In this document: positions 32,603 through 52,595 of the stretch, one piece after another
How positions within the stretch are numbered: the first letter of the stretch is position 1
How the letters are laid out: every line of letters starts with the position of its first letter
From: Candidatus Porifericomitales bacterium
GTDB taxonomy: Bacteria > Pseudomonadota > Gammaproteobacteria > CBDEFV01
Direction: 5' to 3'
Assembly: GCA_965237735.1 (NCBI GenBank)
Contig: CBDEFV010000007.1
Span: 399,305-463,304, forward strand
DNA: 64,000 bases
Notes under the pieces: generated by a model
Databases searched by the model: none
The model's input: the letters and a program-made list of their open reading frames with translations, nothing else
Told to the model about the DNA's origin: nothing
Position numbers and translations under genes: made by a program

Positions 32603-33441
32603 GAGGAGAAAAGGGGCAATTGCCGGCGCCGGTCGAGCCTGAGCCGCTCTTCCGCCCCGGCGGCGAGATCGGGCGGCCCCGGCTCGCGGTAGATCTCGGC
32701 CATGAGCTCGAGCGCCGCCGGCCCAGGGCGCAAGGACAGCGACGAGGCGTGCTCGCCGTCCTCGAAGACGCAGGACACCGTCTGGTAGGTGGGGGCGGCC
32801 CGGGAGCCGGTCGTCGGGTCGGGCTTCTGACCGCCGTGCAGCGCCAGGGTATCGGGGGCGATGGGCTGGGGGACGATGCTCATGAGGAGGAAAAGGGCAA
32901 TTGCCGGCGCCGGTTGAGCCTGAGCCGCTCTTCCGCCTCGGCGGCGAGATCGGGCGGCCCCGGCTCGCGGTAGATCTCGGCCCTGGGTTCGAGCGCCGCC
33001 GGCCCAGGGCGCGAGCACAGCGACGAGGCGTGCTCGCCGTCTTCAAAGACGCAGGACACCGTCTGGTAGATGGGGGCGGCCCGGGAGCCGGTCGTCGGGT
33101 CGGGCTTCTGACCGCCGTGCAGCGCCAGGCTGTCGGGCGCGATGAGCTGGGGGACGATGCTCATGAGGAGAAAAGGGGCAATTGCCGGCGCCGGTTGAGC
33201 CTGAGCCGCTCTTCCGCCCCGGCGGCGAGATCGGGCGGCCCCGGCTCGCGGTAGATCTCGGCCATGAGCTCGAGCGCCGCCGGCCCAGGGCGCGAGCACA
33301 GCGACGAGGCGTGCTCGCCGTCTTCGAAGACGCAGGACACCGTCCGGTAGATGGGGGCGGCCCGGGATCCGGTCGTCGGGTCGGGCTTCTGACCGCCGTG
33401 CAGCGCCAGGCTGTCGGGCGCGATGAGCTGGGGGACGATGC
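32603..33441. repeat. Three extra tandem copies (281-bp period) of the bamD-stop/metY-start junction
   Basis: Each unit is [bamD last ~130 nt][ATGA overlap][metY first ~150 nt], e.g. catgaggag(g)aaaagggcaattgccggcgccgg...gatgggctgggggacgatgct. Copies differ by SNPs. The breakpoint is at microhomology gcgccgccggc. Confidence 0.85.
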
Positions 33442-34239
33442 TCATGAGGAGGAAAAGGGCAATTGCCGGCGCCGGTTGAGCCTGAGCCGCTCTTCCGCCT
33501 CGGCGGCGAGATCGGGCTGCCCCAGTTCGCGGTAGATCTCGACCATGAGCTCAAGCGCCGCCGGCACATGGCGCGAGCGGACGTAGTGGCGCAACAGGTA
33601 ATTGACGCGGCCGAGAGCGCCGACATAGGCGGCGCGGTCGCGGTAAAAGCGGGCCGTGCGGAGCTCGTGCAGCGCCATCTGATCGACGAGGTAGAGCATG
33701 CGCTTGCGCGCGTCGGCGGCGTAGATGCTCTCGGGAAACTGCTGCAGCAGCTGGCGGAAGGCCTCGAAGGACTTGTGCAGCGGCTCCTGATCGGAATTCG
33801 CCAGGGAGCGCGGAAAGAAGCTGTCGAACAGGCCCTTGCCGAAGCTGTAGTGATTGAGCCCACGCAGGTAGAGGACGTAGTCGCTCTTGGGGTCGCGCGG
33901 ATAGACCTTGGCAAAGCGCTCCAGCACCTCGAGCGACTCCTCGTATTTGTCCCCTTTATAAAGCGAATAGGCGACCTGCAGCTGCGCCTGACGCGAGTAG
34001 TCGCCAAAGGGGGAACGGGCTTCGAGGTAGCCGAAGTACTCCTGGGCTCTTTCCGCGTTGCCCTGGTCGAGCTCCACGGCGCCCGCCCGATAGAGTTGCT
34101 CGGCCGTCCAGCCCTCGGTGCCGAGCTCGGGCGGCGGATAGCAGGAAGCCAGCAGCAACGACAGCAACGCGCACGACAGCAGGCGCGCTCCCCTGCCGGT
34201 GGCAGCCGGCACTGTTTCGTCAGGCATCGACTTGGACAT
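33442..34239 (-). CDS. bamD: outer-membrane protein assembly factor BamD (lipoprotein, TPR-like)
   Basis: Lipoprotein signal with lipobox LLLASC. Typical BamD/YfiO sequence (YRAGAVELDQGNAERAQEYF...YKGDKYEESL...YVLYLRGL). Divergent from rluD, as in E. coli. Confidence 0.85.
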   Translation of the reverse strand: MSKSMPDETVPAATGRGARLLSCALLSLLLASCYPPPELGTEGWTAEQLYRAGAVELDQGNAERAQEYFGYLEARSPFGDYSRQAQLQVAYSLYKGDKYEESLEVLERFAKVYPRDPKSDYVLYLRGLNHYSFGKGLFDSFFPRSLANSDQEPLHKSFEAFRQLLQQFPESIYAADARKRMLYLVDQMALHELRTARFYRDRAAYVGALGRVNYLLRHYVRSRHVPAALELMVEIYRELGQPDLAAEAEERLRLNRRRQLPFSSS

Positions 34240-34356
34240 TGGATGGGACGGAAGACTTGGGCGGGAGGAGAGTTTTTCGCTCAGGCGGGCCAGATTGAGC
34301 TTGCCCGCGGGCCGGAAGCGCGCTCCAGAGGCCGGAGAAACCCTATTATAGAGGAC

Positions 34357-35367: not shown

Positions 35368-36521
35368 GCGCCGGCGACCCGTCGCCCGCCGCCGCCAGCT
35401 CGGGCGGGGCTTTCATCGCCGCCGGCTGGCCGGCCCCGGCGGGAGTCGAGGCCGGCTCCACCCTCAGGTCGGCTGTCGTCGGCGGCCGGCTGCAACAGGA
35501 CTTCTCGGCGAGCCTTCGCCATGCCGGCGACAGACCCGAGGCGGCTGCCCGAAGCGAACTGCTGCAACAGTTTGCCGGCCTGCCGGGTCGCCCTCTGGGG
35601 CTCAAACAGGTGCACGGCAGTCGGGTTGTCGAGGCCAGCGAGGACAGGCGGGGCGCCGCAGCTGACGGCCTCTGGACGCGCGAGGAAAATCTGGTACTGG
35701 CCATCGAAACCGCCGACTGCATGCCGCTGCTGCTGGCCGACGACGACGGCACGGTCATCGCCGCCCTGCACGCCGGCTGGCGCGGACTGGCCAGCGGCAT
35801 CGTCGACGCCGCCCTCGAGGCCCTGCCCTGCCGCCCTCAAAAGCTGCGAGCCTGGATCGGCCCGGCCATCTCGCAGCAGCACTACGAGGTCGGCAGCGAA
35901 GTGCGTCAGGCCTTCCTCGAACGGGATGCGCGCCTCGAATCCTTTTTCCTCCCCTCGCCGCCCAAGACGGCTGAAGCCGATGCCTCTCCGGGCCCCCGCT
36001 GGCTCGCCGACCTGCCCGGCATGGCCGCACACCAGCTGCGCCAGCTCGGATTAACGCAAATCTACAACTGCGGCCTCTGCACCTTCGCCCACCCCGAACT
36101 GTTTTTTTCCTACAGGCGCGGCGACCGCCACAAATTCATTGTCACTCTCATCTGGCGGCAGCCGGCCCCCCGACCTCGAGGCAGGCCCTCCCCAATCGAG
36201 CCGGCTCCGCTTCCGGCTCTACGGAAGCAGTTCCTGGCGGGCGCGCTGCCTGCGCCTCCGGAGCCACAACATAGCGGCCCCCAAGACCAGGGCCAACAGC
36301 AGCAGTTCGGTCCAGCCGACGGTCCCGATGCCGCTGGAGCGGATTCCTACTGTTTTTTCCTACAGGCGCGGCGACCGCCACAAATTCATTGTCGCTCTCA
36401 TCTGGCGGCAGCCGGCCCCGACCTCGAGCCAGGCCCTCCCAATCGAGCCGGCTCCGCTTCCGGCTCTACGGAAGCAGTTCCTGGCGGGCGCGCTGCCTGC
36501 GCCTCCGGAGCCACAACATAG
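35364..36521 (+). CDS. pgeF: PgeF/YfiH family (DUF152, laccase-domain) protein; reading frame artificially extended by downstream junction repeats
   Basis: GTG start overlaps the rluD stop. LKQVHGSRVV...DGLWTRE...ALHAGWRGL...ISQQHYEVG...NCGLCTF...FSYRRGDRHKFIV. The conserved domain ends near 36160, but no in-frame stop occurs until 36521 because the 3' end and downstream segment are duplicated. Confidence 0.8.
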   Translation: MSAGDPSPAAASSGGAFIAAGWPAPAGVEAGSTLRSAVVGGRLQQDFSASLRHAGDRPEAAARSELLQQFAGLPGRPLGLKQVHGSRVVEASEDRRGAAADGLWTREENLVLAIETADCMPLLLADDDGTVIAALHAGWRGLASGIVDAALEALPCRPQKLRAWIGPAISQQHYEVGSEVRQAFLERDARLESFFLPSPPKTAEADASPGPRWLADLPGMAAHQLRQLGLTQIYNCGLCTFAHPELFFSYRRGDRHKFIVTLIWRQPAPRPRGRPSPIEPAPLPALRKQFLAGALPAPPEPQHSGPQDQGQQQQFGPADGPDAAGADSYCFFLQARRPPQIHCRSHLAAAGPDLEPGPPNRAGSASGSTEAVPGGRAACASGATT

Positions 36522-36595
36522 CGGCCCCCAAGGCCAGGGCCAACAGCAGCAGTTCGGTCCAGCCGACGGCCCCGATGCCGCTGGAGCGGATTCTC
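36100..36595. repeat. Tandem duplication (2 x ~250 bp) of the convergent junction between the pgeF 3' end and the small secreted protein's 3' end
   Basis: ttttttcctacaggcgcggcgaccgccacaaattcattgtc...gagccacaacatagcggcccccaag(a/g)ccagggccaacagcagcagttcggtccagccgacgg(t/c)cccgatgccgctggagcgg is present at 36100-36345 and again at 36350-36595. A third, dispersed copy lies at 16400-16745. Confidence 0.85.
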
Positions 36596-37058
36596 AGGGT
36601 GACCTCGTGTCGGTCCGCCTCCTCGCCGTCGTCATCGAGGACAAGGAAGCGGACATCGATATCGGCCTCGCTGTCGCCGATAAAATCGTTGGATCTGAAG
36701 ACGAGGGTCCAGATCCAGTCGCGGCCATTGTCCTCGTCTTCATCATGACCGCAGCCGTCTGTCGCGCGGGGGCCGAGGCGCCTCCAGCTGAGCCAACTGC
36801 GGCTGCGAATACTGTTTCATCGACAAGCTCCACCTTCAGATTTCTGGCCTCGACCGTTGCGGTGTCGATGTCGAGGCACAGATCCCGCCTTGAACCATCC
36901 GAGCCGGGGAGAGTCAGACTCAGTCTTATCGGACTCGAATTATAAAAGACCTCTTCTATCTCCTGGGCCTCGGCGGCAAAGTCCGGCGCTGCCGACAAAA
37001 CGGCAGAAACCAAGCCGTATGCCGCCGCCGCAAGAGGCCGGAACCATGTCTGTTTCAT
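36466..37058 (-). CDS. Small secreted protein with Sec signal peptide and GlyGly-CTERM-like tail; apparent frameshift at a G5/C5 run near 36769-36773
   Basis: N-terminus MKQTWFRPLAAAAYGLVSAVLSAAPDFAA (RBS AGAGGTGG). The track ORF 36594-37082 degenerates into a junk frame after ~aa 110. The +1 frame reads ...DWIWTLVFRSNDFIGDSEADIDVRFLVLDDDGEEADRHEVTLRIRSSGIGTVGWTELLLLALALGAAMLWLRRRRQRARQELLP*. Confidence 0.45.
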
Positions 37059-37288
37059 CAACAAAAACCACCTCTGGGGCATGATGGAATCTTCATTTGA
37101 GGGAGCAGGCGGCAGAGCGCCCGGACAGATAAATGGACAGAAGACAACAGCCGCAGCGGCAAATGTTTCCTCTCCTCAGTATAACAGGGCGGCGGGGAAA
37201 TTCGGCTTGATTGCCGGCAAAACCCGGCCCCGTGCGAACTGCGGCGGAAAACTGCCGAATCAGGGGCCGCCCTTCTGCCGTCCGCCTG

Positions 37289-40039
37289 TCAATCCCCGTC
37301 CGGCCGGGGCGGCGGCATCTGGCCGCGCGGGTCGCCCTTGGGGTGGCTGCCGATCAGGGCCTCGCCCTGCTTTTCCGTCCCGGCCAGGGACTGCTGCAAC
37401 TGTTCGCGGCCGCCTTCCAGGACGGAACGGACTTCGCTCGCCGAAGATTCTGCCGCCGCGGCGGAAAAGCCGGCCCCGGCGCCCAAGGCCGGCGGCTGGG
37501 TTGGCGACAGCTGGCTCGAGGGCTCGGCGATGGACAGCTCCGGTTTGGCAAATCCAGCCCCGTTCGCGCTGAGCCAGTCCTCGGCCAGCCCCCTGACAGC
37601 GGCGATCGATTGGAGGTTGCCGCTGGCTACGCCGCTGAGCAGGCCGCCGAGTCCGCGGCTGCGCAGATCGGCGGCAAAGGCATTGCCGAGATCGACCTGA
37701 AGGCCGGTGCCCCAAGCTTGAGTCTGCTGCAACAGCTTGCCCAGAGCCTCTTTTTCTGCCGTCAGTGATTCCTGGGCGCGGCTCAGCGACTGGACGCTGG
37801 CCAGCACCTGGGCATCTTCGCTGCTGCTGTCGCTGCGGGAGCTCCAGCTCTGGCGCGAGGCGATCTCGGCCAGGGCGCTCTGGCCGCGCTCGTAAGTCTG
37901 GCGAAAATCGCTGCCGCGACTGTGCTCGCGGCCCTCGTAGAAACGCTCGCCGGCGCGGCTGCCCTCCTCCGACGTCGACCGCGCCTCGACGCCGACCCTT
38001 CCGCCGAGGCCGGCGCCGAGGCCGCCGGCGCCCGTGCCGAAGCGGGCGCCGGCCTCGGCCGAGCTATAGCTGCTGTAAAGACTTTTCAGGGCCTGCTCCA
38101 TGCCGCTCGACCCCTCGGCGCCGAGGCGGCTCTGCTCCGCCTGCACCAGGCCGTAAAAATCACCGAGGGCCTGGCGCTGCTGCGAGCTCAGGCCCTCGGC
38201 AAAGGAGCTGTCGCTGCTGTAGGCCTCGAGCATGCGCTGGGATGAGGACGAGGAGCGGTTCAGCGCCTGGCCCAGCTGATTGGTGACGCGATTGAGCTCT
38301 TCGCTGGTTGTCTGCAGCTGGCTCTGCACTGAGGAGCTCGCCAGTTGCCGCCAGTCGAGCGAGATGCCGGCGTCGCCGCGCTCGGCCCGCTCGATCGAGC
38401 CGCCCCGGGTTCCCCCCGCCCCCCAGGCCTCGGGGCGGAAACCTTGGGTGAAGCCCCTGCCCGTGTCGAGGTCATAGCCGCCGCCGACATGGCTCGGCCG
38501 CACCATTTCCTGCATCCAGCGCCTGTTGCCGAGTTCGACGTTGCCGGCCCGCACATTGCCGCCCGCCGCTTCCTGGCTGGCCGAACTGCCGCTCGACTGG
38601 GCGACGGCGCCGAGGGAGCCGGCCAGACTCGTCAGGGCGAACTGGCCGCCGGAGACGACCGACCAGGCGATCAGGGGCGCGGAAAACAGCAGATAGCCAG
38701 CCAGATCGTTGACCGAAATCGCCTCCCGCCCCATGGCCTCGATCGCCCTCAGGCTCAACTGGTGGCTGTCGCCGATGCCGTTGAGGGTCAGGTTTTGCAG
38801 GCTCAGGGCCGCCGCCTGGTTGCCGATGTAGCTGATCACGGCGAAGACCGGCGGCCACAGCATGACCCAGGCGACGTACTTGATGTAGTAGAACAGAGTC
38901 CTCGAGGGGTAAAAACTCAGCATGACGACGCCGATGAACAGCGGGAACAGCAGATAGACGAGGCCTTCAAGGGTGGTGTGAATGATCGGCAGGGTGCGCG
39001 CCGCCAGCCGCCCCAGGGTCTGGTAGGTGCGCTTCTGCTGCACCTCGGCCCTGGCGACGGCGAAGGAAGTCAGGGCCCTGCTGCTGCCGCCCCGCTCCAG
39101 CATGCCGTCCTCGAGGGCGCGGGCGACCACCGAGGTCTGCAGTATCTGCGTCGCCGTTGACGACAGCCTCCCCATGTAGGCATAGGAGGCTGCGATCAGG
39201 GGCGGCATGCGGATGATGGCCTCGGCGGCGACAGCCGTCTCCGCCCCTCCCGAGAGGAACAGCAGCAGCCGGTTCTGCGAGCCGGGCCAGTCGCCCTCCA
39301 GTCGCTGGCGCGCATCGCGGCAGCCGACGACCTCGCGCCCGCCGCCGAGCGCGGCCGGATGCTGCCAGAACATGGTCAGGGCGTTGCCGAAATTCGCCGG
39401 GTTCAGCGCCCGCTCCCAGGGGTGTGCTCCCTCGACGAGCTGCTCCAGCTGAATCCAGCCGACGCGGATGCCGCGCAGCACGCAATAGGAGGCGAATTCG
39501 GCGAGATTGGCGCGGAAGACCGGATCCAGGTGGCCGGCGGCGTAGCGCACCCGCTCTATGGCGCGGCTCGGGTACATGGCGCCGCTGTTGGAGTAGCGCA
39601 CGGCGGCCGGCGGATCCGAACGGACGCCGAGGATGGCGGTGCCGCCGACAGGCATGAGCGCTCTCTCAAGGGCCTGGGTCATGCCGTCCATGAGCTGCGA
39701 CAGCAGGGCCGCCGGCAGCGCCAGCCCCAGGGGCATATTCTCGACCGGGCCGCCGCGGGCGGTGTCCGTGCGGTCGACGATCTGCACGTCTACACGCGGA
39801 AACAGCATGAGCCAGACCACCAGCACCATGGAGGCGATGCGGCCAAAATGACCCAGCCTGCCGCTGAAGGCCGCCGACAGCACGGCGATCAGGGCGCCGA
39901 TCGACAGCAGTATGGAGAACACCGGTCTGAGCTCCCCCTGGGCCCCCGTGAGCAGGGCGATGACGGAGAAAAACTGCTGAATCAACAGGCCGTCGGTGTA
40001 GGTGATGACGACGAGGGCGCCGGTGCCGGAATCAAACAT
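37289..40039 (-). CDS. traG: Conjugal-transfer mating-pair stabilisation protein TraG (F-like / ICE MPF-G type), polytopic N-domain plus Ser/Gln-rich C-terminal region
   Basis: 916 aa. Multiple TM segments in the first ~450 aa, with the typical TraG_N layout, then a low-complexity periplasmic region. Position at the end of the tra operon matches PFGI-1/ICEclc-type elements. Confidence 0.75.
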   Translation of the reverse strand: MFDSGTGALVVITYTDGLLIQQFFSVIALLTGAQGELRPVFSILLSIGALIAVLSAAFSGRLGHFGRIASMVLVVWLMLFPRVDVQIVDRTDTARGGPVENMPLGLALPAALLSQLMDGMTQALERALMPVGGTAILGVRSDPPAAVRYSNSGAMYPSRAIERVRYAAGHLDPVFRANLAEFASYCVLRGIRVGWIQLEQLVEGAHPWERALNPANFGNALTMFWQHPAALGGGREVVGCRDARQRLEGDWPGSQNRLLLFLSGGAETAVAAEAIIRMPPLIAASYAYMGRLSSTATQILQTSVVARALEDGMLERGGSSRALTSFAVARAEVQQKRTYQTLGRLAARTLPIIHTTLEGLVYLLFPLFIGVVMLSFYPSRTLFYYIKYVAWVMLWPPVFAVISYIGNQAAALSLQNLTLNGIGDSHQLSLRAIEAMGREAISVNDLAGYLLFSAPLIAWSVVSGGQFALTSLAGSLGAVAQSSGSSASQEAAGGNVRAGNVELGNRRWMQEMVRPSHVGGGYDLDTGRGFTQGFRPEAWGAGGTRGGSIERAERGDAGISLDWRQLASSSVQSQLQTTSEELNRVTNQLGQALNRSSSSSQRMLEAYSSDSSFAEGLSSQQRQALGDFYGLVQAEQSRLGAEGSSGMEQALKSLYSSYSSAEAGARFGTGAGGLGAGLGGRVGVEARSTSEEGSRAGERFYEGREHSRGSDFRQTYERGQSALAEIASRQSWSSRSDSSSEDAQVLASVQSLSRAQESLTAEKEALGKLLQQTQAWGTGLQVDLGNAFAADLRSRGLGGLLSGVASGNLQSIAAVRGLAEDWLSANGAGFAKPELSIAEPSSQLSPTQPPALGAGAGFSAAAAESSASEVRSVLEGGREQLQQSLAGTEKQGEALIGSHPKGDPRGQMPPPRPDGD

Positions 40040-40089
40040 GCCGCTGAACCGGCAGGGGAGAACGGCAGCTGCGTCGGCAGGCCGGGCCG

Positions 40090-45106: not shown

Positions 45107-46185
45107 GGCTCATGCTGGGGTTGGCCGCGAATCATGGCGCCGAGGGCGTATTCGAGGCTCAGGGCGCCGGATACCTTCAGGTGGGGCGGCGTCGCGCAAC
45201 CCTGCGGCGAGCAGGGGCTGAGCGGTTCGGTCGACCAGACGAAGGTCGGCGCCGCCTCGACGGCGAAGCGCTCAAACAGGAAGGGGTCGATCCACAGGCG
45301 GACGTCCCTGCCCAGATCGGCGTTCCATTGCAGGGTGGCGGGAAAGGAATCCCCGACCAGGCCGCGGACGGCGAGGACGGCATCGCTCTCTTTCGCCTGG
45401 CGCGCCAGCGAGCGGGCGAGGGAGCGCGGCAGGGAGGACGACAGCAGCACAAAGAGGCGGCGTCCGCCGTAGAGGCTGCCGACTGAGGCCGAGGCTGTGG
45501 CGGCCAGGGAGACTCCGGCGAAAACGGGTGGCAGGAACGCCTCGGCGGCATCGGCCCTCTGCTGCACCCGCTGGCGCTGGCGCTGGGCCCGCTGCAACAT
45601 CTGCGGTTGGAGTTGGGCCGCAGGAGGCAGCGCCGAGGCCACTGGCAAGGGCCCGTCCGCTGCTGCCGCCGGCAGCAGGGGGGGGCCGACGGCATCGGCC
45701 CTCTGCTGCACCCGCTGGCGCTGGCGCTGGGCCCGCTGCAACATCTGCGGTTGGAGTTGGGCCGCAGGAGGCAGCGCCGAAGCCACTGGCAAGGGCCCGT
45801 CCGCTGCTGCCGCCGGCGGCAGAGAGGCCCCGGCGGCATCGGCCCTCTGCTGCACCTGCTGGCGCTGGCGCCGCTGCAGCGTCTGTGGCCGGAGTTGGGC
45901 CGCAGAAGGCAGCGCCGAAGCCACTGGCAAGGGCCCGTCCGCTGCTGCCGCCGGCGGCAGAGAGGCCCCGGCGGCATCGGCCCTCTGCTGCACCTGCTGG
46001 CGCTGGCGCCGCTGCAGCGTCTGTGGCCGGAGTTGGGCCGCAGAAGGCAGCGCCGAAGCCACTGGCAAGGGCCCGTCCGCTGCTGCCGCCGGCGGGGGAA
46101 CCCCGGCGGCGGCAAGCGGCCAGACCGCGACGAGGACGGCCGCCAACCGCACCGTCAGAACAGGCAGCATGAGCGTTTTCTCCAC
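45079..46185 (-). CDS. TrbC-like conjugal-transfer pilus-assembly protein with four in-frame 42-aa tandem repeats near the N-terminus
   Basis: Signal peptide, then 4 x [LPPAAAADGPLPVASALPSAAQLRPQTLQRRQRQQVQQRADAAGAS] (126-nt period). C-terminal thioredoxin-like TrbC region ...DAVLAVRGLVGDSF..TLQ...IDPFLFERFAVEAAPTFVW. Confidence 0.65.
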   Translation of the reverse strand: MEKTLMLPVLTVRLAAVLVAVWPLAAAGVPPPAAAADGPLPVASALPSAAQLRPQTLQRRQRQQVQQRADAAGASLPPAAAADGPLPVASALPSAAQLRPQTLQRRQRQQVQQRADAAGASLPPAAAADGPLPVASALPPAAQLQPQMLQRAQRQRQRVQQRADAVGPPLLPAAAADGPLPVASALPPAAQLQPQMLQRAQRQRQRVQQRADAAEAFLPPVFAGVSLAATASASVGSLYGGRRLFVLLSSSLPRSLARSLARQAKESDAVLAVRGLVGDSFPATLQWNADLGRDVRLWIDPFLFERFAVEAAPTFVWSTEPLSPCSPQGCATPPHLKVSGALSLEYALGAMIRGQPQHEPWLRAYLRP

Positions 46186-47096
46186 ATCAGAAACCCCCAG
46201 TCCTCGCCGGCCACAGGAAACTGGCGGCCGATTCCCCAGAGCGACACCTGCTTGCCGTAGGCGTGGTTGAAGAGGGCGTCGGCAAAGGGGGCGAGCATCT
46301 GATGGCGGTAATTGCTCTTGCGCATGATCGGCTGAAAGTTGAGGCCGCAGAGATCGCCGGCGGAGTCGCGGGCGACGCCGCTGCGGTGGAGTTTGGCGTG
46401 CAGCCGCATGACGCTGAGCACCCCGGCCTCGAGTCCTGATTCATGGCCGCTGTGGTTGCCGCTGAACGGGTACAGGGATCCTTGGCAGCCGGCGCACCAG
46501 AAGAGGGCGTCGAGCGGGCGGTTGAAACTCGCGGCCAGGCAGTCGGCGGCGCAGGCTGCCTGGGCCACCGGGTTCGCCAGCAGCAGCGCCTCGGGATTGA
46601 ACAGCGCCGCCAGGGAATCGTTGTGCCAGGTCGGGTCGAGTTCTGACATGTAGGCGACATCGAAGGTTTCCGGCTCGATGCAGGCGAAGCTCGCCAGCAG
46701 GCCGAGCCAGGAAGCCAGCGGATAGACCAGCCAGTGAAGGTGGTAGCTGGCGCTCTGGTCGCGGCCCTGGCGGTGGTTGTCGCCCCCTGCGACCGAGCCG
46801 AGGGTGCCGAAATCGACGCCTCCGAGGAGCGGGCTGCAGAAGGGCTCCCGCACGACTTCGGCGGCCCGGGCCGGCTCCCAGAAGCTGATGCCGAGGCCGG
46901 GGCGCAGGCCGCAGAGACAGAACCCCTGAATCTCGAAGGGCAGCACACAGCTCCAGCAGACGTCGGTCAGGGGATTGGGGATGCGCCCGACACAGGCGGC
47001 GGCCGCCGGGCCGGAAAAAGCCGCGGCCAGGAGTCCGACAAGCGGACCCGCCGTCGCTCCCGCCAGTCGGGAGCCGAACGACCTCACAGCGGCCAC
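46155..47096 (-). CDS. traU: Conjugal-transfer pilus-assembly protein TraU
   Basis: 313 aa, 18 Cys. DVCWSCVLP, CGLRPGLG, WLVYPL, LFWCAGCQGSLYPF — characteristic TraU motifs. GTG start. Confidence 0.85.
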   Translation of the reverse strand: MAAVRSFGSRLAGATAGPLVGLLAAAFSGPAAAACVGRIPNPLTDVCWSCVLPFEIQGFCLCGLRPGLGISFWEPARAAEVVREPFCSPLLGGVDFGTLGSVAGGDNHRQGRDQSASYHLHWLVYPLASWLGLLASFACIEPETFDVAYMSELDPTWHNDSLAALFNPEALLLANPVAQAACAADCLAASFNRPLDALFWCAGCQGSLYPFSGNHSGHESGLEAGVLSVMRLHAKLHRSGVARDSAGDLCGLNFQPIMRKSNYRHQMLAPFADALFNHAYGKQVSLWGIGRQFPVAGEDWGFLMWRKRSCCLF

Positions 47097-47346
47097 TCTT
47101 CAAGCACCAGCCTCGATCCCTGCTGGCGCACGGTCGCCGGCAGGGCCTCGATGCCGAGTCTGCGCAGCGGCCCCCCGCCCTGATCGAGGCAGAGACGCCG
47201 CCGCCACTCCTTTGGACCTTACAGCGGCCACTCTTCAAGCACCAGCCTCGATTCCTGCTGGCGCACGGTCGCCGGCAGGGCCTCGATGCCGAGTCTGCGC
47301 AGCAGCTCCCCGCCCTGATCGAGGCAGAGGTGCCGCCGCCACTCCT
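47097..47346. repeat. Two extra tandem copies (~125-bp period) of the traW-3'/traU-5' junction
   Basis: (a)cagcggccactcttcaagcaccagcctcgatccctgctggcgcacggtcgccggcagggcctcgatgccgagtctgcgcagc...cactcctt repeats at ~47092 and ~47218, with the native copy at ~47343. Confidence 0.8.
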
Positions 47347-47353
47347 TGGGACC

Positions 47354-47983
47354 TCACAGCGGCCACTCTTCAAGCACCAGCCTTGATCCCTGCTGGCGCA
47401 CGGTCGCCGGCAGGGCCTCGATGCCGAGTCTGCGCAGCAGCTCCCCGCCCTGATCGAAGTAGAGGCGCCGCCGCCACTCCTTCAGCAGGCGCATGTAAGG
47501 GCCGCTCGTCAGAATCCAGGTCTCGCCCCCGCTGTCAGCGCGGCTGCGCACCCAGGAGCGCTGCCGCGGCTCATCGCCGGCAAAGAACACCAGCGTCTGC
47601 GACAGGGAGACCTGATCGAGCGGGTTGATGCGCTCGCCGGCCAACACCAGCGCCCGGCCCCTGTGATCGACGACCGTGCGTGGCGCCACATAGGTCGGGT
47701 CGTGCAGCCACCGGCGGTAGGCCGGCGCCGCCGGCAGCCTCGTCGGCGGCGGCCGCTCGACGCGGTCGCGGTATCTCCGGCGGGCGTCGCCCATGAGTTG
47801 CTTCCATCTGGGCAGCAGCGCCTCGGCCCGCTGCTCCATCCACTCGAGAAAGGAGCGCTCAGCCAAGGGCCAGACTCGGCCATAGGCGCCGAGGTCGAGG
47901 GCGGAGGCGGCCCCGGGAGCGGCGAGGCAGCCCAGAGAGAGCAGCGCCACCAGGGCCCTACCAGAGACGAAAGGCCCGCCCAT
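47354..47983 (-). CDS. traW: Conjugal-transfer pilus-assembly protein TraW-like
   Basis: 209 aa. Signal peptide ALVALLSLGCLAAPGAASA. TraW-like sequence (YGRVWPLAE...NPLDQVSL..TLVFF.GDEPRQ). Confidence 0.75.
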   Translation of the reverse strand: MGGPFVSGRALVALLSLGCLAAPGAASALDLGAYGRVWPLAERSFLEWMEQRAEALLPRWKQLMGDARRRYRDRVERPPPTRLPAAPAYRRWLHDPTYVAPRTVVDHRGRALVLAGERINPLDQVSLSQTLVFFAGDEPRQRSWVRSRADSGGETWILTSGPYMRLLKEWRRRLYFDQGGELLRRLGIEALPATVRQQGSRLVLEEWPL

Positions 47984-48485
47984 CGATCCAGTCCGCTTCG
48001 ATGACGCCTATGTAGCGGTAGCGCGAGTCGAGGCTCGAGGCATGAGGCGCCCAGCCGAACAGCTGTCCGGGCTGGAGCAGGGTCCGGCTGACGGGCTCGA
48101 GCGCACGGCCGCCGGCCGTCTGCCGCTGCAACTGCCCGACCCGGGCGCCGTCGATCCAGACAGCTCCATCGGCCGCCTCGATGAGGCTGCCGCCGCAGCC
48201 AAGGGCGATTTTCAGCATGCGCACCCCTGCGAGACGGCTCTGGCCAGGCGGCAGGGAAAAAGAAAAGAGATCGCCACAGCGTGGCTCGCTGCCGCGCACC
48301 ACGAGGAACCAGGTTCCGGGAAGGCTGTCGGATACATTGCGCAGCAGCAGGTAGCGCGAGGCCAGGGCCGGCGCCCCCAGAGCGATGGCGGCGGCCAGGG
48401 CCGCAGCCGCCAGGCGGCCCCGGGGCAGGGTCTGCAGTCGGCGGCGCAGAACAGGGGCCGGGAAGCGCCGAAACAGCGGTCTCAT
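47958..48485 (-). CDS. TraF-type conjugative signal peptidase-like protein (S26 family)
   Basis: ~175 aa. N-terminal TM (LAAAALAAAIALGAPALA); VSDSLPGTWFLV resembles the S26 Ser box. Start overlaps the upstream stop (ATGA). Confidence 0.5.
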   Translation of the reverse strand: MRPLFRRFPAPVLRRRLQTLPRGRLAAAALAAAIALGAPALASRYLLLRNVSDSLPGTWFLVVRGSEPRCGDLFSFSLPPGQSRLAGVRMLKIALGCGGSLIEAADGAVWIDGARVGQLQRQTAGGRALEPVSRTLLQPGQLFGWAPHASSLDSRYRYIGVIEADWIDGRAFRLW

Positions 48486-48886
48486 CACCAGGCCCCCTCT
48501 TCCGACAACAGCCGCATGACCTCGGCGCTGATGTCCTCGGCGCCGTAGATGACGGCGCCGGCAGTGAAGACTCTGAGGCCGCGCTCCTCGGCCAGGCGGC
48601 GGATGATGCCCTCCAGGGCCCGGCCGAGGTTGGCGCTGCGCGCCTTCAACTCGGCGGCGCCGAGCTCCTCCGCGGTCCACTTCTCCTTCGCCTTGTGCAG
48701 GATCATGCGCACATCGGCAACTGCCGGCTGCGCCGGTCGCTGCTGCAGGGAGAGCGCCAGCAGCAGGGCCAGGGTCGCCGCCGTCGAACAGAGCGACAGC
48801 GGCAGCAGCACGGGGACGCGGCCGCCCGGGCGCGCCGGGCGGCAACCGGACCACAGGGAGCCGCTGTTCAGAAGTCGCCGCTTCAT
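48485..48886 (-). CDS. Small exported ICE-type T4SS protein of unknown function
   Basis: MKRRLLNSGSLWSGCRPARPGGRVPVLLPLSLCSTAA... (signal/lipoprotein-like). Its start is copied three times in tandem. Confidence 0.45.
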   Translation of the reverse strand: MKRRLLNSGSLWSGCRPARPGGRVPVLLPLSLCSTAATLALLLALSLQQRPAQPAVADVRMILHKAKEKWTAEELGAAELKARSANLGRALEGIIRRLAEERGLRVFTAGAVIYGAEDISAEVMRLLSEEGAW

Positions 48887-49222
48887 GTCCGCTCCCGCGC
48901 CAGCCGCTCCTGAGCTACAGCCTGATCCAGAGCTTTGGCCAGGGCCGCCGCCGTCGAACAGAGCGACAGCGGCAGCAGTACGGGGACGCGGCCGCCCGGG
49001 CGCGCCGGGCGGCAACCGGACCACAGGGAACCGCTGTTCAGAAGCCGCCGCTTCATGTCTGCTCCCGCGCCAGCCGCTCCTGAGCTACAGCCTGATCCAG
49101 AGCTTTGGCCAGGGCCGCCGCCGTCGAACAGAGCGACAGCGGCAGCAGCACGGGGACGCGGCCGCCCGGGCGCGCCGGGCGGCAACCGGACCACAGGGAG
49201 CCGCTGTTCAGAAGCCGCCGCT
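48887..49222. repeat. Two extra tandem copies (170-bp period) of the traC-stop/next-gene-start ATGA junction
   Basis: The unit gtc(c/t)gctcccgcgccagccgctcctgagctacagcctgatccagagctttggccagggccgccgccgtcgaacagagcgacagcggcagcag(c/t)acggggacgcggccgcccgggcgcgccgggcggcaaccggaccacaggga(g/a)ccgctgttcagaag(t/c)cgccgcttcatg occurs with start codons at 48886, 49056 and 49226. Confidence 0.85.
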
Positions 49223-51733
49223 TCATGTCCGCTCCCGCGCCAGCCGCTCCTGAGCTACAGCCTGATCCAGGGCTTCGGCCAGAGTCGCCCCCTTCCTGCG
49301 CAGCTCTTCGATGCCGGCGACCTCTTCGCTGCGGGTCGTGTAGAGCTTCTGGCTCCAGGGGTCGAGCAGCAGGCGGCCGAGGGCGCAGCCGTTGCTGCCG
49401 AGGATGCCGATCTCCGAGTACAGGCCCGGCACCGAACGGATGGTCTCCAGCAGCGGCAGCAGCTTTTCGGGGATGGGCGCCGAGTGCTTTCTGACGCACT
49501 CGCGCAACTGGCCGGGCGAGTGCTGCATCAGCAGCTTCCAGGCGCTGTTCGACAGGCAGGCCGTCACCGCCTCGCTGCGATAGTAGTCCTCGAGGCCCTG
49601 AGTGATGGTGCAGAAAGAGCCGCCGTACTTGCGGGCCGTGCGGTAGCCCGAGACGATGAACTCGCCGGAGCTGCCGCCGGCCAGCAGATCCCAGGCCTCG
49701 TCGATGACGCAGAGCTGCTGGCGCGAACCACGGCTGCCGAGGAACATCTCCTGCACGATCCGCAGAATCAGCAGGTTCGTCACCACCGACTTGAAGGCCT
49801 TGTCAAGCTGGGCGATGTCGCCGAGTTCGAGGACGACGAAATCGCGTCCCAGGTCGATCCCCGCCGGTCCGCGGAAGTAGGGGGCTACCGAACCCTCGCG
49901 GCCGAAGCGCCAGAGGGCGTCGGCGAGGTCGCGGCAGCGCGGGTCCGGGTGCAGCCGCAGGCGCTCGTAGACATGGCTGACTTCGGCCCCGCGGCCATGG
50001 TCGCGCCAGACCTCGTTCAGCGCCTGCTCGAGCCAGCCGCTCTCCTGGGGGCTGAGCGAGCCCTCGGGACGCGCCATCTGCTCGAACAGCAGCCGCACCA
50101 TGGCCTGCTCCGGGGCCCGGTCGCTGTCGAGGGCGTCCCAGTTGCGCACATGGCTGAAGGGGTTGAGGCTGACGGCCTGCTTCAGGTCGATGAAGGAGCC
50201 GCCGAGCAGGCGGCACAGGCGCTCGTAGGAGCGACCCTTGTCGAACACCCAGACGCGGCCGCCGCCGCGCAGCACGTTGAAGATCAGCTCCTGAATCAGT
50301 ACGCTCTTGCCGGCGCCGGAGACCGCTGCCACGGAAATGTTGTAGTTCGTTGAATCGCTGGCCCAGGGCGACCAGTGAAACAGCTGGCCGCGGCGGCCGG
50401 CGAACAGCATGAGCGGCTCGCGTGTGCCCTTCCACTCGCCGGCAAAGGGCGTGAAGTTGGCGGCCGTCTGATTGAGCATGGTCCGCGTTCTCCTGTAGCT
50501 TTCGGCGGTCGCCATGGAGGCCGGCGTCGCCCCTCCCGGCAGGGCGTGGAGCCAGGCATGAGGGGCGATGAAACGCTCGCGCGCCAAGCGCCAGCCGTTG
50601 GCGCCGTAGATGCCGTCGGCCCGCGATTCGGCGTCGTTGCCGGCCGTGGCCCTGTCGCTGTCGCCGATCCGCGTCGGCGCGAACAGCACCAGCTGATAGA
50701 CGCCGCGGACGAGGCGGCCGCCGCGCTTCAGCTCCTCGCTGACGCGGCGCCAGTCGGCGGCGCGCTCGCCCCAGAAAGGCACATAGCGGCCGACCGAACT
50801 GTGCATCCTCTCGGCGTAGAGGGCCTTGGTCTCGGACGAGTTCTGGGCGCCGAACGAGTCGGGGAAGGACAGCGACAGCGAGATCAGGAAGGGGCAGTCG
50901 TAGCGCAGGTTGTCGTCCTGCATGGAGCCGAGCAGCTCGGTGTTCTGCCAGCCCTCCCAATGGGTCGGCAGCAGGGCCGGCACAAAGGAGCGCAGATCGA
51001 CGACCATGGAGGCCGTGTGCAGGCCGAGGCCGTTGTATTTCACCGTCAGCCCGGTTTCGGCCCGCGGCAGGGCGTCGCGGAAGAGCCTCAGGGGATCGTG
51101 GCGGATTCGCTCCTGCTTGAAGGGGCGCGGGTTGATGAGGGTGTCGAGCAGGTCGGCGTGATCGTCCGCTCCCCAGACTCTGCCGGGTACGCCGGCGGCC
51201 TCGAAACGCTTGAGAATCTTTTCGCGCAGCTGCACCAGGCCCTCGTTTGTGCCCCTTGCCAGCGGCCGCTGGAGGATGCCGACGAGGCGAAAGTCGCGCA
51301 GGATCAGGGAGCCCTCCGACGACTGGCGCCAGAGCCTGCGACTGTAGAACTCTTCGCGGCGGCGCACCAGTCCCAGCGGATCCGGGCCGACCGAACTCCA
51401 CTTGCGCAGGATGGCGGCGATGTCGGGAGAGGCGTAAAGGCACCACTGCAGGCTGTCGCCCTCTTCGGGTTCGAGCAGCAGCGACGACAGGGCCTCGGCC
51501 AGGCGCTCATCCATGGCCAGGGGCGGCGCCAACTCGAAAATGAAGCCGCAGCTGGCGGCCGTGAAAAACAGATTCAGCCCGCTGTCCCATGCCTCCCATG
51601 GCAGCAGCGACGCCAGGCTGTGGCGCGGCAGCATGCGGCGCCAGTCGGCGGCGCTCGGCGGCAGCGACGACAGCAGTTGGGACGCCGGCATCTCGGCTCG
51701 GGCGCGGCCGAGTGCCCGCAGCAGCGACTTCAC
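49223..51733 (-). CDS. traC: Conjugative-transfer ATPase TraC/VirB4 (ICE PFGI-1 class)
   Basis: 836 aa. Walker A AVSGAGKSV; Walker B/DEAW region VIDEAWDLL. Typical VirB4/TraC length and position. Confidence 0.9.
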   Translation of the reverse strand: MKSLLRALGRARAEMPASQLLSSLPPSAADWRRMLPRHSLASLLPWEAWDSGLNLFFTAASCGFIFELAPPLAMDERLAEALSSLLLEPEEGDSLQWCLYASPDIAAILRKWSSVGPDPLGLVRRREEFYSRRLWRQSSEGSLILRDFRLVGILQRPLARGTNEGLVQLREKILKRFEAAGVPGRVWGADDHADLLDTLINPRPFKQERIRHDPLRLFRDALPRAETGLTVKYNGLGLHTASMVVDLRSFVPALLPTHWEGWQNTELLGSMQDDNLRYDCPFLISLSLSFPDSFGAQNSSETKALYAERMHSSVGRYVPFWGERAADWRRVSEELKRGGRLVRGVYQLVLFAPTRIGDSDRATAGNDAESRADGIYGANGWRLARERFIAPHAWLHALPGGATPASMATAESYRRTRTMLNQTAANFTPFAGEWKGTREPLMLFAGRRGQLFHWSPWASDSTNYNISVAAVSGAGKSVLIQELIFNVLRGGGRVWVFDKGRSYERLCRLLGGSFIDLKQAVSLNPFSHVRNWDALDSDRAPEQAMVRLLFEQMARPEGSLSPQESGWLEQALNEVWRDHGRGAEVSHVYERLRLHPDPRCRDLADALWRFGREGSVAPYFRGPAGIDLGRDFVVLELGDIAQLDKAFKSVVTNLLILRIVQEMFLGSRGSRQQLCVIDEAWDLLAGGSSGEFIVSGYRTARKYGGSFCTITQGLEDYYRSEAVTACLSNSAWKLLMQHSPGQLRECVRKHSAPIPEKLLPLLETIRSVPGLYSEIGILGSNGCALGRLLLDPWSQKLYTTRSEEVAGIEELRRKGATLAEALDQAVAQERLARERT

Positions 51734-52179
51734 GGCCGCACCCCCGGCCGCGGCACCAGATGGCCGGGGTCTATATACCAGTGGCCCCGGTCGAGCACGA
51801 TCTGAATATACTGCTCGCCGCGCAGGTCGCCGCTGCCGTCGACCCAGGAGTTGACCCAGATGCGCAGCCGTTCCGGCGACAGATAGCGCCCTTCGCCCGC
51901 CGCCTCGGCCGCCCGCTGAGGTCGCCGCGAGCTGCGGTCAACGGCCGCGGTCGCGCCCCCGGCCAGTCGGGTCGCGGCTGCCGCCGCCCCGGCCGAAAGG
52001 GAGCGGCGGCTTTCCGGTTCCTCGATGCGGCCGGCCGTCAACTGCAGGTACGACTGCTTGACGGTCGGGCACTCCTCGCTGTTCCGCCCGCGGCACTCGG
52101 GCTGAAAATGGCCGAGGCTGTAGCAGCCGGCCTGCAGCAGCGAGCAGGCGGCGATCAGGGGCAAGCGGAATCCTCTCAT
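51730..52179 (-). CDS. ICE T4SS lipoprotein (TraV-like position)
   Basis: MRGFRLPLIAACSLLQAGC (lipobox LQAGC), 149 aa. ATG overlaps the preceding stop. The N-terminus is duplicated twice further upstream. Confidence 0.55.
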   Translation of the reverse strand: MRGFRLPLIAACSLLQAGCYSLGHFQPECRGRNSEECPTVKQSYLQLTAGRIEEPESRRSLSAGAAAAATRLAGGATAAVDRSSRRPQRAAEAAGEGRYLSPERLRIWVNSWVDGSGDLRGEQYIQIVLDRGHWYIDPGHLVPRPGVRP

Positions 52180-52595
52180 GGGCTGTGCTCGGTGATGAGG
52201 TCCCTGCTGAGGGAGACATCTTCGCTGAACACCACATCGACGACGGCCCCGCCCGGCACCTCTATGACCGGATAGAGCTCGTCGGCGCGCTCCAGATACC
52301 ATTCGGCCAGGTTTTCGCCGGACGAGGCTGTAGCAGCCGGCCTGCAGCAGCGAGCAGGCAGTGATCAGGGGCAGACGGAGTCCTCTCATGGGCTGTGCTC
52401 GGTGATGAGGTCCCTGCTGAGGGAGACATCTTCGCTGAACACCACATCGACGACGGCCCCGCCCGGCACCTCTATGACCGGATAGAGCTCGTCGGCGCGC
52501 TCCAGATACCATTCGGCCAGGTTTTCGCCGGACGAGGCTGTAGCAGCCGGCCTGCAGCAGCGAGCAGGCGGCGATCAGGGGCAAGCGGAGTCCTC
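52180..52595. repeat. Two extra tandem copies (~199-bp period) of the traB-3'/lipoprotein-5' ATGA junction
   Basis: The unit tcctctcatgggctgtgctcggtgatgaggtccctgctgagggagacatcttcgctgaacaccacatcgacgacggccccgcccggcacctctatgaccggatagagctcgtcggcgcgctccagataccattcggccaggttttcgccggacgaggctgtagcagccggcctgcagcagcgagcaggc... starts at ~52171, ~52371 and ~52591. Confidence 0.85.

Follow-up and report, generated by a model that had tools for sequence, protein, structure and literature searches.

Nine long-unit tandem arrays lie in a 64-kb stretch of DNA (hereafter the window) from an uncultured, deep-branching Gram-negative bacterium, with units of 93-281 bp, 2-6 copies and 84-97% matches by Tandem Repeats Finder (TRF). 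Eight of the nine include a gene end, and the ninth is an in-frame 46-codon repeat in trbC. Each locus probably gained its array separately within the lineage of this species, through short tandem duplication at a high rate that purifying selection then filtered, and later decay of the spare copies may lock the arrays in place. A first-pass annotation of this DNA had described dense, multi-copy arrays at gene boundaries, and the TRF result bears this out; seven of the nine fall inside the interval that it had flagged (32603-52595), with arrays A and B outside.

Tandem arrays were detected by TRF together with a repeat search, and genes were identified with Pfam. Sequence covered amounted to ~84 kb of the host and ~80 kb of its relatives. 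The arrays were read from assembled contigs, the source contigs having ~5-7x long-read coverage, and both array-carrying assemblies belong to a single ENA sample record (ERZ26167216) and are thus non-independent evidence. Homopolymer indel differences separate these two assemblies close to a contig end. The genome is ~68% G+C (65-72% in this region) and ~95% coding, with overlapping stop and start codons. Among GTDB species representatives the host clade has no close relative; a BamD alignment search of genome contigs found no relative, a DnaB search of genome contigs gave best matches of at most 41% identity from mixed phyla, and the small cluster mates of TraB were unrelated proteins of 51-53 aa. 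The flanking genes and arrays are as follows.

Array A, 15058-15824, plus strand: ~3.5 copies of 208-229 bp, comprising the final 133 nt of giant ORF A and sequence beyond it
Dispersed chimeric copy, 15803-16729, plus strand: abhydrolase tail (matching 30417-30586) fused to the 3' part of pgeF and the small-gene tail
Array B, 16882-17195, minus strand: 2 (2.07) copies of 152 bp, comprising the final 45 nt of giant ORF B with its stop, and sequence beyond it
metY, 31289-32602, minus strand: O-acetylhomoserine sulfhydrylase family, 437 aa (Pfam PF01053, E = 3.5e-120)
Array C, 32455-33578, minus strand: 4 copies of 281 bp, 94% matches, bamD tail and metY head
bamD, 33442-34239, minus strand: YfiO lipoprotein (Pfam PF13525), the intact upstream gene of array C
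Array D, 36098-36593, plus strand: 2 copies of 247 bp, pgeF tail (plus strand) and tail of a convergent small gene (minus strand)
F-type type IV secretion operon, 37289-55334, minus strand: identified from Pfam and gene tables
Array E, 40101-40660, minus strand: 6 copies of 93 bp (31 codons), traH tail plus 19 nt per unit
Array F, 45538-46095, minus strand: 4 copies of 138 (144) bp, in frame, a 46-aa repeat in the N-terminal linker of trbC
Array G, 47080-47484, minus strand: 3 copies of 135 bp, traW tail through its TGA plus 4 nt, with a GTGA overlap with traU
Array H, 48767-49289, minus strand: 3 (3.1) copies of 170 bp, traC tail (67 nt), ATGA overlap and head of the next gene
Array I, 52113-52742, minus strand: 3 copies of 210 bp, traB tail (147 nt), ATGA and traV head (63 nt)

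Some of the unit lengths and copy numbers first reported need correction: the trbC unit measures 138 nt rather than 126, the traB/traV unit 210 rather than 199, and the tail of gene B is present in 2 copies, not 3. The length of each array is very nearly a whole-number multiple of its unit, and copies within an array differ from one another at 0-27 positions. Just beyond the window, the same organism has a tenth array (207 bp, two copies, leuS tail and head of the next gene), and the density of fixed arrays is ~1 per 7-8 kb. The arrays are clumped, with none in the 10 kb to the left of the window or in its 53-64 kb portion.

The genes that flank these arrays are intact. In array C each unit runs from the last 137 nt of bamD, TGA included, across the ATGA overlap into the first 144 nt of metY; the working bamD tail is in copy 1 and the working head of metY, the intact downstream gene, in copy 4. 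The intervening copies make up three ATGA-linked chimeric ORFs of 94 aa each. BamD itself is longer than its relatives by 10 aa at the C-terminus, and in the alignment this extension reaches the metY ATG. Array H is built in the same way: the gene after traC has a weak match to F-type TrbI, and the spare copies hold two ATGA-linked ORFs of 57 aa each. Several junctions had first been described as exact ATGA overlaps, and an ATGA stop/start overlap occurs in every copy of the arrays with 281-, 170- and 210-bp units (C, H and I). Linked ORF chains are seen in arrays C and H and not in G and I. In array G the traW tail of copy 1 and the traU start of copy 3 are the working ones, and in copy 2 the overlap has changed from GTGA to GTAA, with loss of the duplicated start. 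The traV head portion of array I carries a signal peptide and lipobox, and the traV frame is open through all three copies with a lipobox in each. Array E retains the TAG stop of traH in copy 1; in copies 2-6 this has become TGG, which leaves an open 184-aa repeat ORF reaching the traG start. Array F is the only one of the nine wholly within a gene. The units of array A resemble single-copy sequence at 30228-30455, and array D has a third, dispersed copy at 16410-16729. Near array D, an apparent frameshift at a C run affects pgeF and the small gene at 36466-37082.

The F-type operon comprises traL, E, K, B, V, C, a trbI-like gene, an S26 peptidase gene, traW, U, trbC, a gene for a hypothetical protein, and traN, F, H and G. 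Every gene is intact despite five arrays at or within operon genes. Its products share 88-94% amino acid identity with those of a sister genome, with divergence mostly at third positions, and the secretion system is inherited with the chromosome. Rfam searches at the gathering score returned no riboswitch or other RNA in the window or in a relative's 194-nt bamD-metY spacer, and searches of the giant-gene and small-gene tails for C-terminal sorting-signal families gave only sub-threshold hints (MYXO-CTERM, E = 0.046).

The sister genome, a long-read metagenome assembly at 20x (ENA ERZ25072076, ctg245873), is fully syntenic with the window at 80-87% DNA identity. Every array junction is compact and single-copy there, and every large insertion in the window relative to it is one of the arrays, which are therefore derived insertions. 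Locus by locus, relative L004 has one contiguous equivalent of the 281-bp unit of array C, also single-copy in L003, and lacks arrays C, D and E; the array D junction is single-copy in a relative; the traH-traG spacer, where array E is found, is 82-90 nt in relatives; the TrbC of a relative (241 aa) carries only once the linker that is repeated in array F; traW-GTGA-traU is single-copy in a relative (array G); and traB-ATGA-traV-ATGA-traC is single-copy in L024-L027 (array I). The relatives have arrays of their own elsewhere. L004 carries three copies of a 242-bp unit across the metY stop and abhydrolase start, and L003 an intergenic array of two 122-bp copies. Two related species thus have arrays at other sites, so that the tendency belongs to the lineage, in agreement with the first-pass suggestion of a lineage-specific process; the orthologous junctions of two related genomes are free of arrays. 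A further locus, L028, has a 78-nt repeat in ten copies, its length divisible by three. Arrays with a period of at least 60 number nine in this 64 kb against two in ~80 kb of relatives, and ~130 kb of unrelated bacterial loci contain none. The array density is far above chance.

What determines where the arrays lie? Under random placement 65-85% of units would fall wholly inside genes, yet only one of seven is internal, and that one is in frame (P(<=1) ~1e-3). The preference for junctions that had been proposed is thus real. When a duplicated unit takes in a gene end, each flanking gene still has an intact copy, while an internal duplication usually shifts the frame, and the enrichment is therefore explained more simply as survivorship. 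Among the earlier proposals, template switching at translation-coupled terminators finds no support at the junctions, which are overlapping stop and start codons without terminator-like sites. Neither is there a shared junction motif or recombinase site beyond a weak enrichment of GCCGC(C) (GCCGC at 7/9 junctions, p ~0.02). Breakpoints at short microhomologies had also been reported, and these are present at three arrays: H (12/13 nt, at the array end), B (10 nt) and F (6 nt). At arrays A, C, D, E, G and I the match is 0-2 nt, although divergence could have erased short matches, and slippage between direct repeats is accordingly only a candidate route there.

The extra copies have not been maintained as coding sequence in their parental frames. 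Variable columns in spare copies are distributed 20:35:20 over parental codon positions 1, 2 and 3, against 113:53:324 in functional orthologues, with an excess of position-2 changes and many replacements by proline or glycine, for instance H>P, V>G, L>P and Q>P in the BamD tail. When polarised on the sister genome, 58 derived events fall in non-functional copies and 14 are private to the functional copy. Transitions make up 78% of the 58, and the AT-to-GC rate per site in spare copies is ~2.8x the GC-to-AT rate (A>G 15, T>C 8, C>T 12, G>A 10, plus others). Spare copies decay without constraint and with a bias towards G/C. They are also closer to one another than to the functional copy, which is the outlier: functional and spare tails differ by 8.5% and spare tails among themselves by 2.7%, and copies 2-6 of array E have 10 derived changes in common followed by 0-3 differences. 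This fits a two-phase history in which a single old duplication was followed by later expansion. Divergence between copies is about 3-15% across the arrays, which argues that they are long-lived, and the earlier view that no single recent event produced them is upheld by arrays that are multi-step, old and made of diverged copies.

These observations can be assembled into a scheme of four steps. A stretch of 93-281 bp would first be duplicated head to tail, an event evident in every array, and replication slippage or a switch of template would be the likely route, in some cases between short direct repeats rich in G+C. Purifying selection would then retain only harmless kinds, namely duplications that contain a gene end, intergenic ones and in-frame ones in a tolerant linker, a filter that the placement statistics support; copy 1 would keep the tail of the upstream gene and the last copy the head of the downstream gene. 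Only these three kinds are observed. Thirdly, the redundant tails and heads would decay unconstrained under the pressure of this genome towards G/C, as the substitution pattern documents. Finally, recombination that collapsed the array from its first to its last copy would produce a hybrid gene end with damaging changes, so that full reversion would be selected against and the array locked at two or more copies, while the inner spare copies would go on expanding, contracting and homogenising. Decay of the spare copies may thus render collapse harmful. We infer this lock-in from the divergence pattern, and expansion simply from copy 2 would yield the same pattern. Candidates for the high rate of origin or retention are a peculiarity of replication or repair, where the very divergent DnaB comes into question, and the plentiful (GCC)n-type microhomology at 68% G+C.

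A different reading holds that the arrays are adaptive, serving as relays of coupled ORFs or (re)initiation sites, as spacers that uncouple neighbouring genes, or as new repeat proteins; we regard this as improbable for the arrays as a whole. The arrays with 281- and 170-bp units do retain perfect chains of ATGA-linked ORFs that connect the upstream gene to the downstream one, the TAG to TGG change opens a 184-aa frame over array E, and the traV frame stays open in all three copies of array I, each with its lipobox. Repeat-borne coupled ORFs can moreover be tolerated or exploited, as MIRUs show (PMC12548453). However, the 135- and 210-bp arrays lack linked chimeric chains and one duplicated start has been lost, open frames are expected by chance at 68% G+C, and the substitutions in spare copies, with their excess at position 2 and frequent proline or glycine replacements, are those of unconstrained sequence. 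The 11 non-internal arrays have periods in the three classes modulo 3 in the proportion 4:2:5, as spread as chance predicts, and the class that preserves ATGA chains is not favoured. In sister genomes these genes are likewise intact and under purifying selection, and the arrays are absent. The proposal of selection for extra restart sites is unsupported on the same grounds, as the spare copies are unconstrained in the parental frames, GTGA has become GTAA and the periods divide 4:2:5. Persistence to 4-15% divergence in a compact genome is nevertheless hard to fit to pure neutrality, and selection may maintain some of the arrays.

It is very unlikely that the assembler, polishing or library chimeras created the copies and that the true junctions are single-copy. 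Contig coverages of ~5x and ~7x, the homopolymer indels between the assemblies and the apparent frameshift of pgeF and the small gene at a C run would suit such an artefact. Errors of this kind would be blind to gene ends, yet eight of nine arrays include one, the flanking genes are intact and the ninth array is in frame. Long-read errors are chiefly indels, whereas the differences between copies are mostly transitions, are common to subsets of copies and are derived in redundant copies only. The arrays span at most 1.1 kb, much shorter than long reads, so that each would fit within a single read. In the sister genome, whose contigs are named in the same style and have 20x coverage, these junctions carry no arrays, and a relative from another sample has an array of this kind at a different junction.

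Scarcely any more credible is a mosaic of strain alleles, with the extra copies being diverged alleles brought in by homology-facilitated illegitimate recombination. Differences of 3-10% between copies would be unexpected in fresh slippage products, and the locus adjoins conjugation genes. Working alleles should differ mainly at third positions, however, and the observed 20:35:20, the many disruptive replacements and a lost stop codon do not have this character. By the sister outgroup it is the functional copy that is ancestral-like, derived states being found in the spare copies, which are closest to one another.

Insertion of a dispersed or mobile repeat family (a MIRU-like minisatellite or similar) at operon junctions would explain why the arrays, much like MIRUs, sit at stop/start overlaps with a -4 coupling geometry, but the units are local gene tails and heads, alignable base for base to the sister's single-copy junctions, and the arrays are mutually dissimilar with no common terminal motif beyond the weak GCCGC enrichment, which makes this origin extremely unlikely. 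A diversity-generating retroelement was also considered and rejected; the changes are not adenine-specific, and no reverse transcriptase is among the Pfam hits of the region.

Duplication followed by filtering and decay has partial parallels in known systems. Bacterial tandem duplications are usually regarded as frequent but short-lived. MIRUs are one dispersed repeat family. The microhomology-mediated tandem duplications (MTDs) of Dan et al. (2021, PMC8639346) form far more readily at GC-rich microhomology pairs, are subclonal and revert ~100x faster than they form; their detection in E. coli is 20-60x lower than in yeasts. Within essential genes they are under-represented, and survivors tend to keep frame or lie near 3' ends (PMC8639346). 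The present arrays resemble them in being local head-to-tail duplications of tens to hundreds of bp, with units collinear with single-copy sister sequence and with 6-13 nt of microhomology at arrays H, B and F and at the chimeric junction (15960-15974). They differ in being fixed, very dense, 3-15% diverged and present in 2-6 copies, and microhomology is undetectable at most of them.

MIRUs are short, apparently mobile tandem minisatellites at co-directional gene junctions, and -4 nt (ATGA-type) overlaps couple their repeat ORFs to the flanks, which leaves expression little affected by insertion (PMC12548453). Arrays C and H, but not G and I, are similarly placed at start codons with repeat-borne ORFs in -4 nt overlap, although the units here are longer (93-281 bp), consist of local tail plus head and are unrelated between arrays. 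The repeats of Methanoperedens Borgs are perfect, hence recent, and A-rich, with examples of 18-21 nt units in three or more copies; inside ORFs their unit lengths are divisible by three and yield repeat or disordered protein segments (Schoelmerich et al., 2023, PMC9879509). Array F (138 nt, 46 codons, in frame in TrbC) and the ten 78-nt copies at L028 are comparable, and the present arrays are likewise locus-unique and absent from close relatives. In contrast, their copies are old and diverged (84-97% matching), their 93-281 bp units are G+C-rich coding sequence without A enrichment, and most straddle two genes instead of lying in one ORF or spacer.

A conceptual parallel is found in duplication-degeneration, as in constructive neutral evolution and mitochondrial tandem duplication-random loss, in which neutral duplication and complementary decay of redundant parts leave an expanded state that is hard to reverse. 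Such logic is usually applied to whole genes or gene orders, whereas here it would act on the last or first 20-50 codons of adjacent bacterial genes. It is possible, and we put it forward tentatively, that the arrays exemplify an unrecognised mode of genome evolution in this deep-branching lineage, in which high-rate short duplication, driven by replication or repair, is made permanent by a ratchet of junction degeneration and feeds raw material for new genes into an otherwise streamlined genome. A literature search for junction-spanning tandem duplications in bacteria returned no prior description, and its incomplete coverage makes this weak evidence of novelty.

If this is correct, the arrays lengthen operons, break overlapping stop/start couplings and steadily supply expressed chimeric micro-ORFs and repeat extensions from which new genes could be made, for example the 94-aa ORFs that join a MetY head to a BamD tail, the 184-aa repeat protein of the TraH tail and a TraV with three lipoboxes. 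Some ten fixed duplications in ~84 kb, 3-15% diverged, are found almost only where both neighbours are spared. Should the pattern extend genome-wide, it would offer a natural read-out of the raw duplication spectrum after selective filtering, a testable neutral ratchet that turns small duplications irreversible, and an observable supply of new translationally coupled ORFs and of repeat extensions to proteins. There is a practical warning for annotation as well: gene calls are inflated by chains of 57- and 94-aa "genes" and by over-extended ORFs, and short-read assemblies would probably collapse such arrays.

Outside the giant genes, a sensitive self-BLAST detected no additional local duplications. 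In the dispersed chimeric copy at 15803-16729, the 3' part of pgeF and the small-gene tail match 35649-36669 and are joined to the abhydrolase tail at a 12-nt G+C-rich microhomology (15960-15974). The whole resembles what a 6.4-kb segmental copy would leave after an internal deletion of 5.07 kb.

Across the 64 kb of the window, Tandem Repeats Finder detects nine long-unit tandem arrays; the same families emerge from an independent seed-and-extend search. These arrays demonstrate local head-to-tail duplication, a derived state, a selection filter, unconstrained G/C-biased decay and a two-phase history. Arrays at many loci had been listed in the first-pass annotation, and both searches confirm that list with three corrections: 138 nt instead of 126 for the trbC unit, 210 nt instead of 199 for that of the traB/traV array, and two copies instead of three in the “gene B tail” array. 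The gene names metY, bamD, rluD and pgeF and the F-type type IV secretion operon from traL to traG were confirmed with Pfam. The lengths of the arrays come very close to whole numbers of units, and sensitive self-BLAST of the window revealed no further local duplications beyond the arrays, bar internal repeats of two giant genes.

Tandem arrays found by both searches, and the giant ORFs (window positions)
15058-15824: array A, unit 208-229 nt, 3.5 copies, contains the stop of a giant ORF
16882-17195: array B, unit 152 nt, 2 copies, contains the stop of a giant ORF
32455-33578: array C, unit 281 nt, 4 copies, contains an ATGA stop/start overlap
36098-36593: array D, unit 247 nt, 2 copies, contains both tails of a convergent gene pair
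40101-40660: array E, unit 93 nt, 6 copies, contains the traH stop plus 19 nt
45538-46095: array F, unit 138 nt, 4 copies, wholly inside trbC
47080-47484: array G, unit 135 nt, 3 copies, contains a GTGA overlap
48767-49289: array H, unit 170 nt, 3 copies, contains an ATGA stop/start overlap
52113-52742: array I, unit 210 nt, 3 copies, contains an ATGA stop/start overlap
3254-15190, plus strand: giant ORF, about 3980 aa, Calx-beta and LapA-like matches
17151-29843, minus strand: its convergent paralogue, about 4230 aa, Calx-beta and LapA-like matches

When the copies are written out along the coding strand, a gene end falls within the unit in eight of the nine arrays. Copy 1 of every boundary array runs into the upstream gene body and the last copy into the downstream gene body, so both flanking genes are complete. 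The unit of array F amounts to 46 codons and is in frame within trbC. The spare copies of arrays C and H, which are redundant gene tails and heads, form chains of ATGA-linked chimeric ORFs, and these account for 94-aa and 57-aa “genes” in the public annotation. A TAG-to-TGG change common to copies 2-6 of array E opens a 184-aa repeat ORF, and the traV frame and lipobox are open through all three copies of array I. Initiation of this traV frame (51730-52962, minus strand) at the first ATGA would yield a predicted TraV precursor bearing three signal-peptide and lipobox segments in a row.

A sister genome, 80-87% identical to the window in nucleotides, matches it perfectly in gene order across the coupling-protein gene, the secretion operon, pgeF, rluD, bamD, metY and an abhydrolase gene. 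The large insertions of the window relative to this sister are, without exception, the arrays. Its junctions are single-copy (traB-ATGA-traV-ATGA-traC and traW-GTGA-traU), as are its TrbC linker and its bamD and metY ends, and 90 nt separate traH from traG. A second, about equally distant relative (L004) lacks arrays C, D and E and has the array C unit (281 bp) just once, uninterrupted. Judged from these alignments, the arrays are derived in the window lineage. The bamD-metY spacer measures 194 nt in another relative, L003 (10768-10962), and 27 nt in L004 (10594-10622). Its length in the window (33442-33480) is -4 nt (ATGA); BamD there no longer has the former stop codon and extends 10 aa further (RRRQLPFSSS). 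Compaction of the junction thus preceded its amplification. No Rfam family matched the 194-nt spacer.

Do so many gene ends call for a mechanism that targets junctions? The sister sequence is compact and about 95% coding, and random placement of units of the observed lengths on it would leave 65-85% of them entirely within a gene. Of the seven arrays of the syntenic region just one is internal, and it is in frame (P for at most one internal about 1e-3); five further arrays (A, B and those at L004, L003 and L028, the last being the organism's own DNA beyond the window) are all non-internal. The periods of these boundary or non-internal arrays fall in all three classes modulo 3, as expected if frame is irrelevant to units containing a boundary. 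Junction enrichment therefore matches the expectation for purifying selection on duplications that arise at random, and a junction-targeting mechanism is not needed. Earlier proposals fared less well: template switching driven by terminators is not supported, since no terminator-like sites coincide with arrays in the window, and selection for extra restart sites likewise finds no support.

The copies have decayed in a manner distinct from functional genes. Variable columns among copies are distributed 20:35:20 over parental codon positions; the corresponding figures for the functional orthologues traB, traC and traE, window against sister, are 113:53:324. Polarising changes with the sister as outgroup gives 58 derived substitution events in non-functional copies (78% of them transitions) against 14 private to the functional copy, and a per-site AT-to-GC rate about 2.8 times that of GC-to-AT. 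The excess at position 2 fits this bias because most of the A/T remaining in a genome of high G+C is found there. Spare BamD tails carry many disruptive changes, among them H>P, V>G, L>P and Q>P; the functional tail differs from them by 8.5%, whereas they differ from one another by 2.7%. Copies 2-6 of array E have ten derived changes in common, followed by 0-3 differences. Third-position divergence between window and sister is about 24%, and the oldest first duplications have diverged by about 12-15% (array E) and 8% (array C), so that their age amounts to much of the period since the two species diverged; later expansions are recent. Strain alleles are ruled out as a source of the differences, which would then fall mostly at third positions, as are sequencing error, which would yield mainly indels and unshared changes, and a DGR-like process, whose changes would be adenine-specific.

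The arrays probably originated by slippage or template switching. Microhomology reaches 12/13 nt at array H, 10 nt at B and 6 nt at F but only 0-2 nt at the others, and GCCGC(C) is weakly enriched at array junctions. Duplication is reported to arise about 1000-fold more readily at long G+C-rich microhomology pairs than at short A+T-rich ones (PMC8639346). A dispersed chimeric copy (15803-16729) joins the abhydrolase tail (30417-30586) to the 3′ part of pgeF (35649-36669), two segments separated by 5 kb in the genome; a G+C-rich microhomology of 12 nt (15960-15974) marks the join. It looks as if a 6.4-kb segment was copied and then lost 5.07 kb internally, so segmental duplication operates at the kilobase scale as well. 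Reversion of newly formed duplications is reported to outpace their formation about 100-fold (PMC8639346). Once copies have decayed, recombination of copy 1 with the last copy at any point other than the exact stop/start would produce a hybrid tail or head containing decayed sequence; full collapse would then be counter-selected, with inner copies free to expand, contract and homogenise. Such a lock-in step would explain both long persistence and the functional copy being the outlier.

A lineage-specific mutational process, as first suggested, is supported by arrays at other sites. L004 has its own array (242 nt, three copies) across the metY stop and abhydrolase start, L003 an intergenic one (122 nt, two copies), and a tenth array of the window organism (L028 733-1160; 207 nt, two copies) lies about 9 kb past the window at the leuS tail and next gene head; about 130 kb of unrelated bacterial loci contained no array of period at least 60. 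The arrays are clumped, with none in the 10 kb left of the window or at 53-64 kb, about 84 kb of genome being covered. G+C content is 0.53 in L025, 0.63 in L024, L026 and L003, 0.66 in L004 and 0.68 in the window, and the stretches examined hold 0, 1 (L003), 1 and 9 long-unit arrays in the same order, although the genomes are too few for a correlation. The window species thus has the highest G+C and most arrays among its relatives; G+C content and an unusually divergent DnaB are leads, not evidence, on the cause of the high rate. L028 also encodes, between gyrA and rpsR, a 472-aa hypothetical protein with ten in-frame 78-nt repeats (7390-8184), and the equivalent gene of L024 and L025 has 18-nt repeats.

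In how they work, the arrays resemble microhomology-mediated or slipped-strand tandem duplications but are fixed, old, multi-copy and very dense. They share position and -4 coupling geometry with MIRUs (PMC12548453) but do not form a dispersed family. Like Borg tandem repeats, they are genome-specific, locus-unique, absent from relatives and divisible by three inside ORFs (PMC9879509); unlike these, they are imperfect, G+C-rich, long-unit and mostly straddle two genes. The literature searched gave no account of junction-spanning tandem duplications this dense in a bacterium. The kind of mutation is already known, and the interest lies mainly in density, age and a possible ratchet.

BamD and DnaB each have three or four relatives at 69-84% identity, all in ENA long-read metagenome contigs; outside this clade identity falls to at most 42% and 48%, respectively, across mixed phyla, and two scans of GTDB r232 species representatives did not find the clade. 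By these protein comparisons, the host is an uncultured, deep-branching Gram-negative bacterium of a small clade, and the bamD<>rluD-pgeF and rplI-dnaB arrangements suggest Pseudomonadota. A 2.29-Mb contig (20x coverage) carries the locus of one relative; the contig's name ends in “rc”, perhaps the mark of a circular genome. Parts of two contigs of ENA ERZ26167216 (coverage about 5x and 7x, names typical of a long-read metagenome assembler) match the window exactly or at 99.97% identity; the 656-kb contig holding the window joins both, and neither source is independent confirmation of the arrays. pgeF reads about 110 codons beyond the relative's stop, after a C run (about 36160-36170) 2 bases longer in copy 1 of array D than in copy 2, and the convergent small gene (36466-37082) is split across two frames; each of these may reflect a consensus error in a homopolymer, with coverage at about 5x, and not biology.

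Within the stretch 37289-59817, the secretion operon is complete; it lies between dnaB-rarA and pgeF-rluD-bamD. Its order is the same in all six relatives' loci found (L003, L004 and L024-L027), its proteins are 88-94% identical with divergence mostly at third positions, and the gene tables of the region list no integrase. It appears to have descended vertically with the chromosome, not to belong to a plasmid or ICE gained recently.

The sister lacks the giant ORFs at their position, metY-abhydrolase being followed by EamA and tyrS, and the ERZ26167216 assembly breaks within them. The two ORFs share about 80% identity in their N-terminal parts and 66-70% in their C-terminal parts. Both giant proteins and the product of the small convergent gene have tails (14291-15190, 17151-18050 and 36466-36560) that end in a hydrophobic helix and then an Arg-rich stretch, resembling a C-terminal sorting signal. 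The sole match to sorting-signal families is a sub-threshold MYXO-CTERM hit in the tail of giant ORF B (E = 0.046). These signal-like tails are what arrays A, B and D duplicate.
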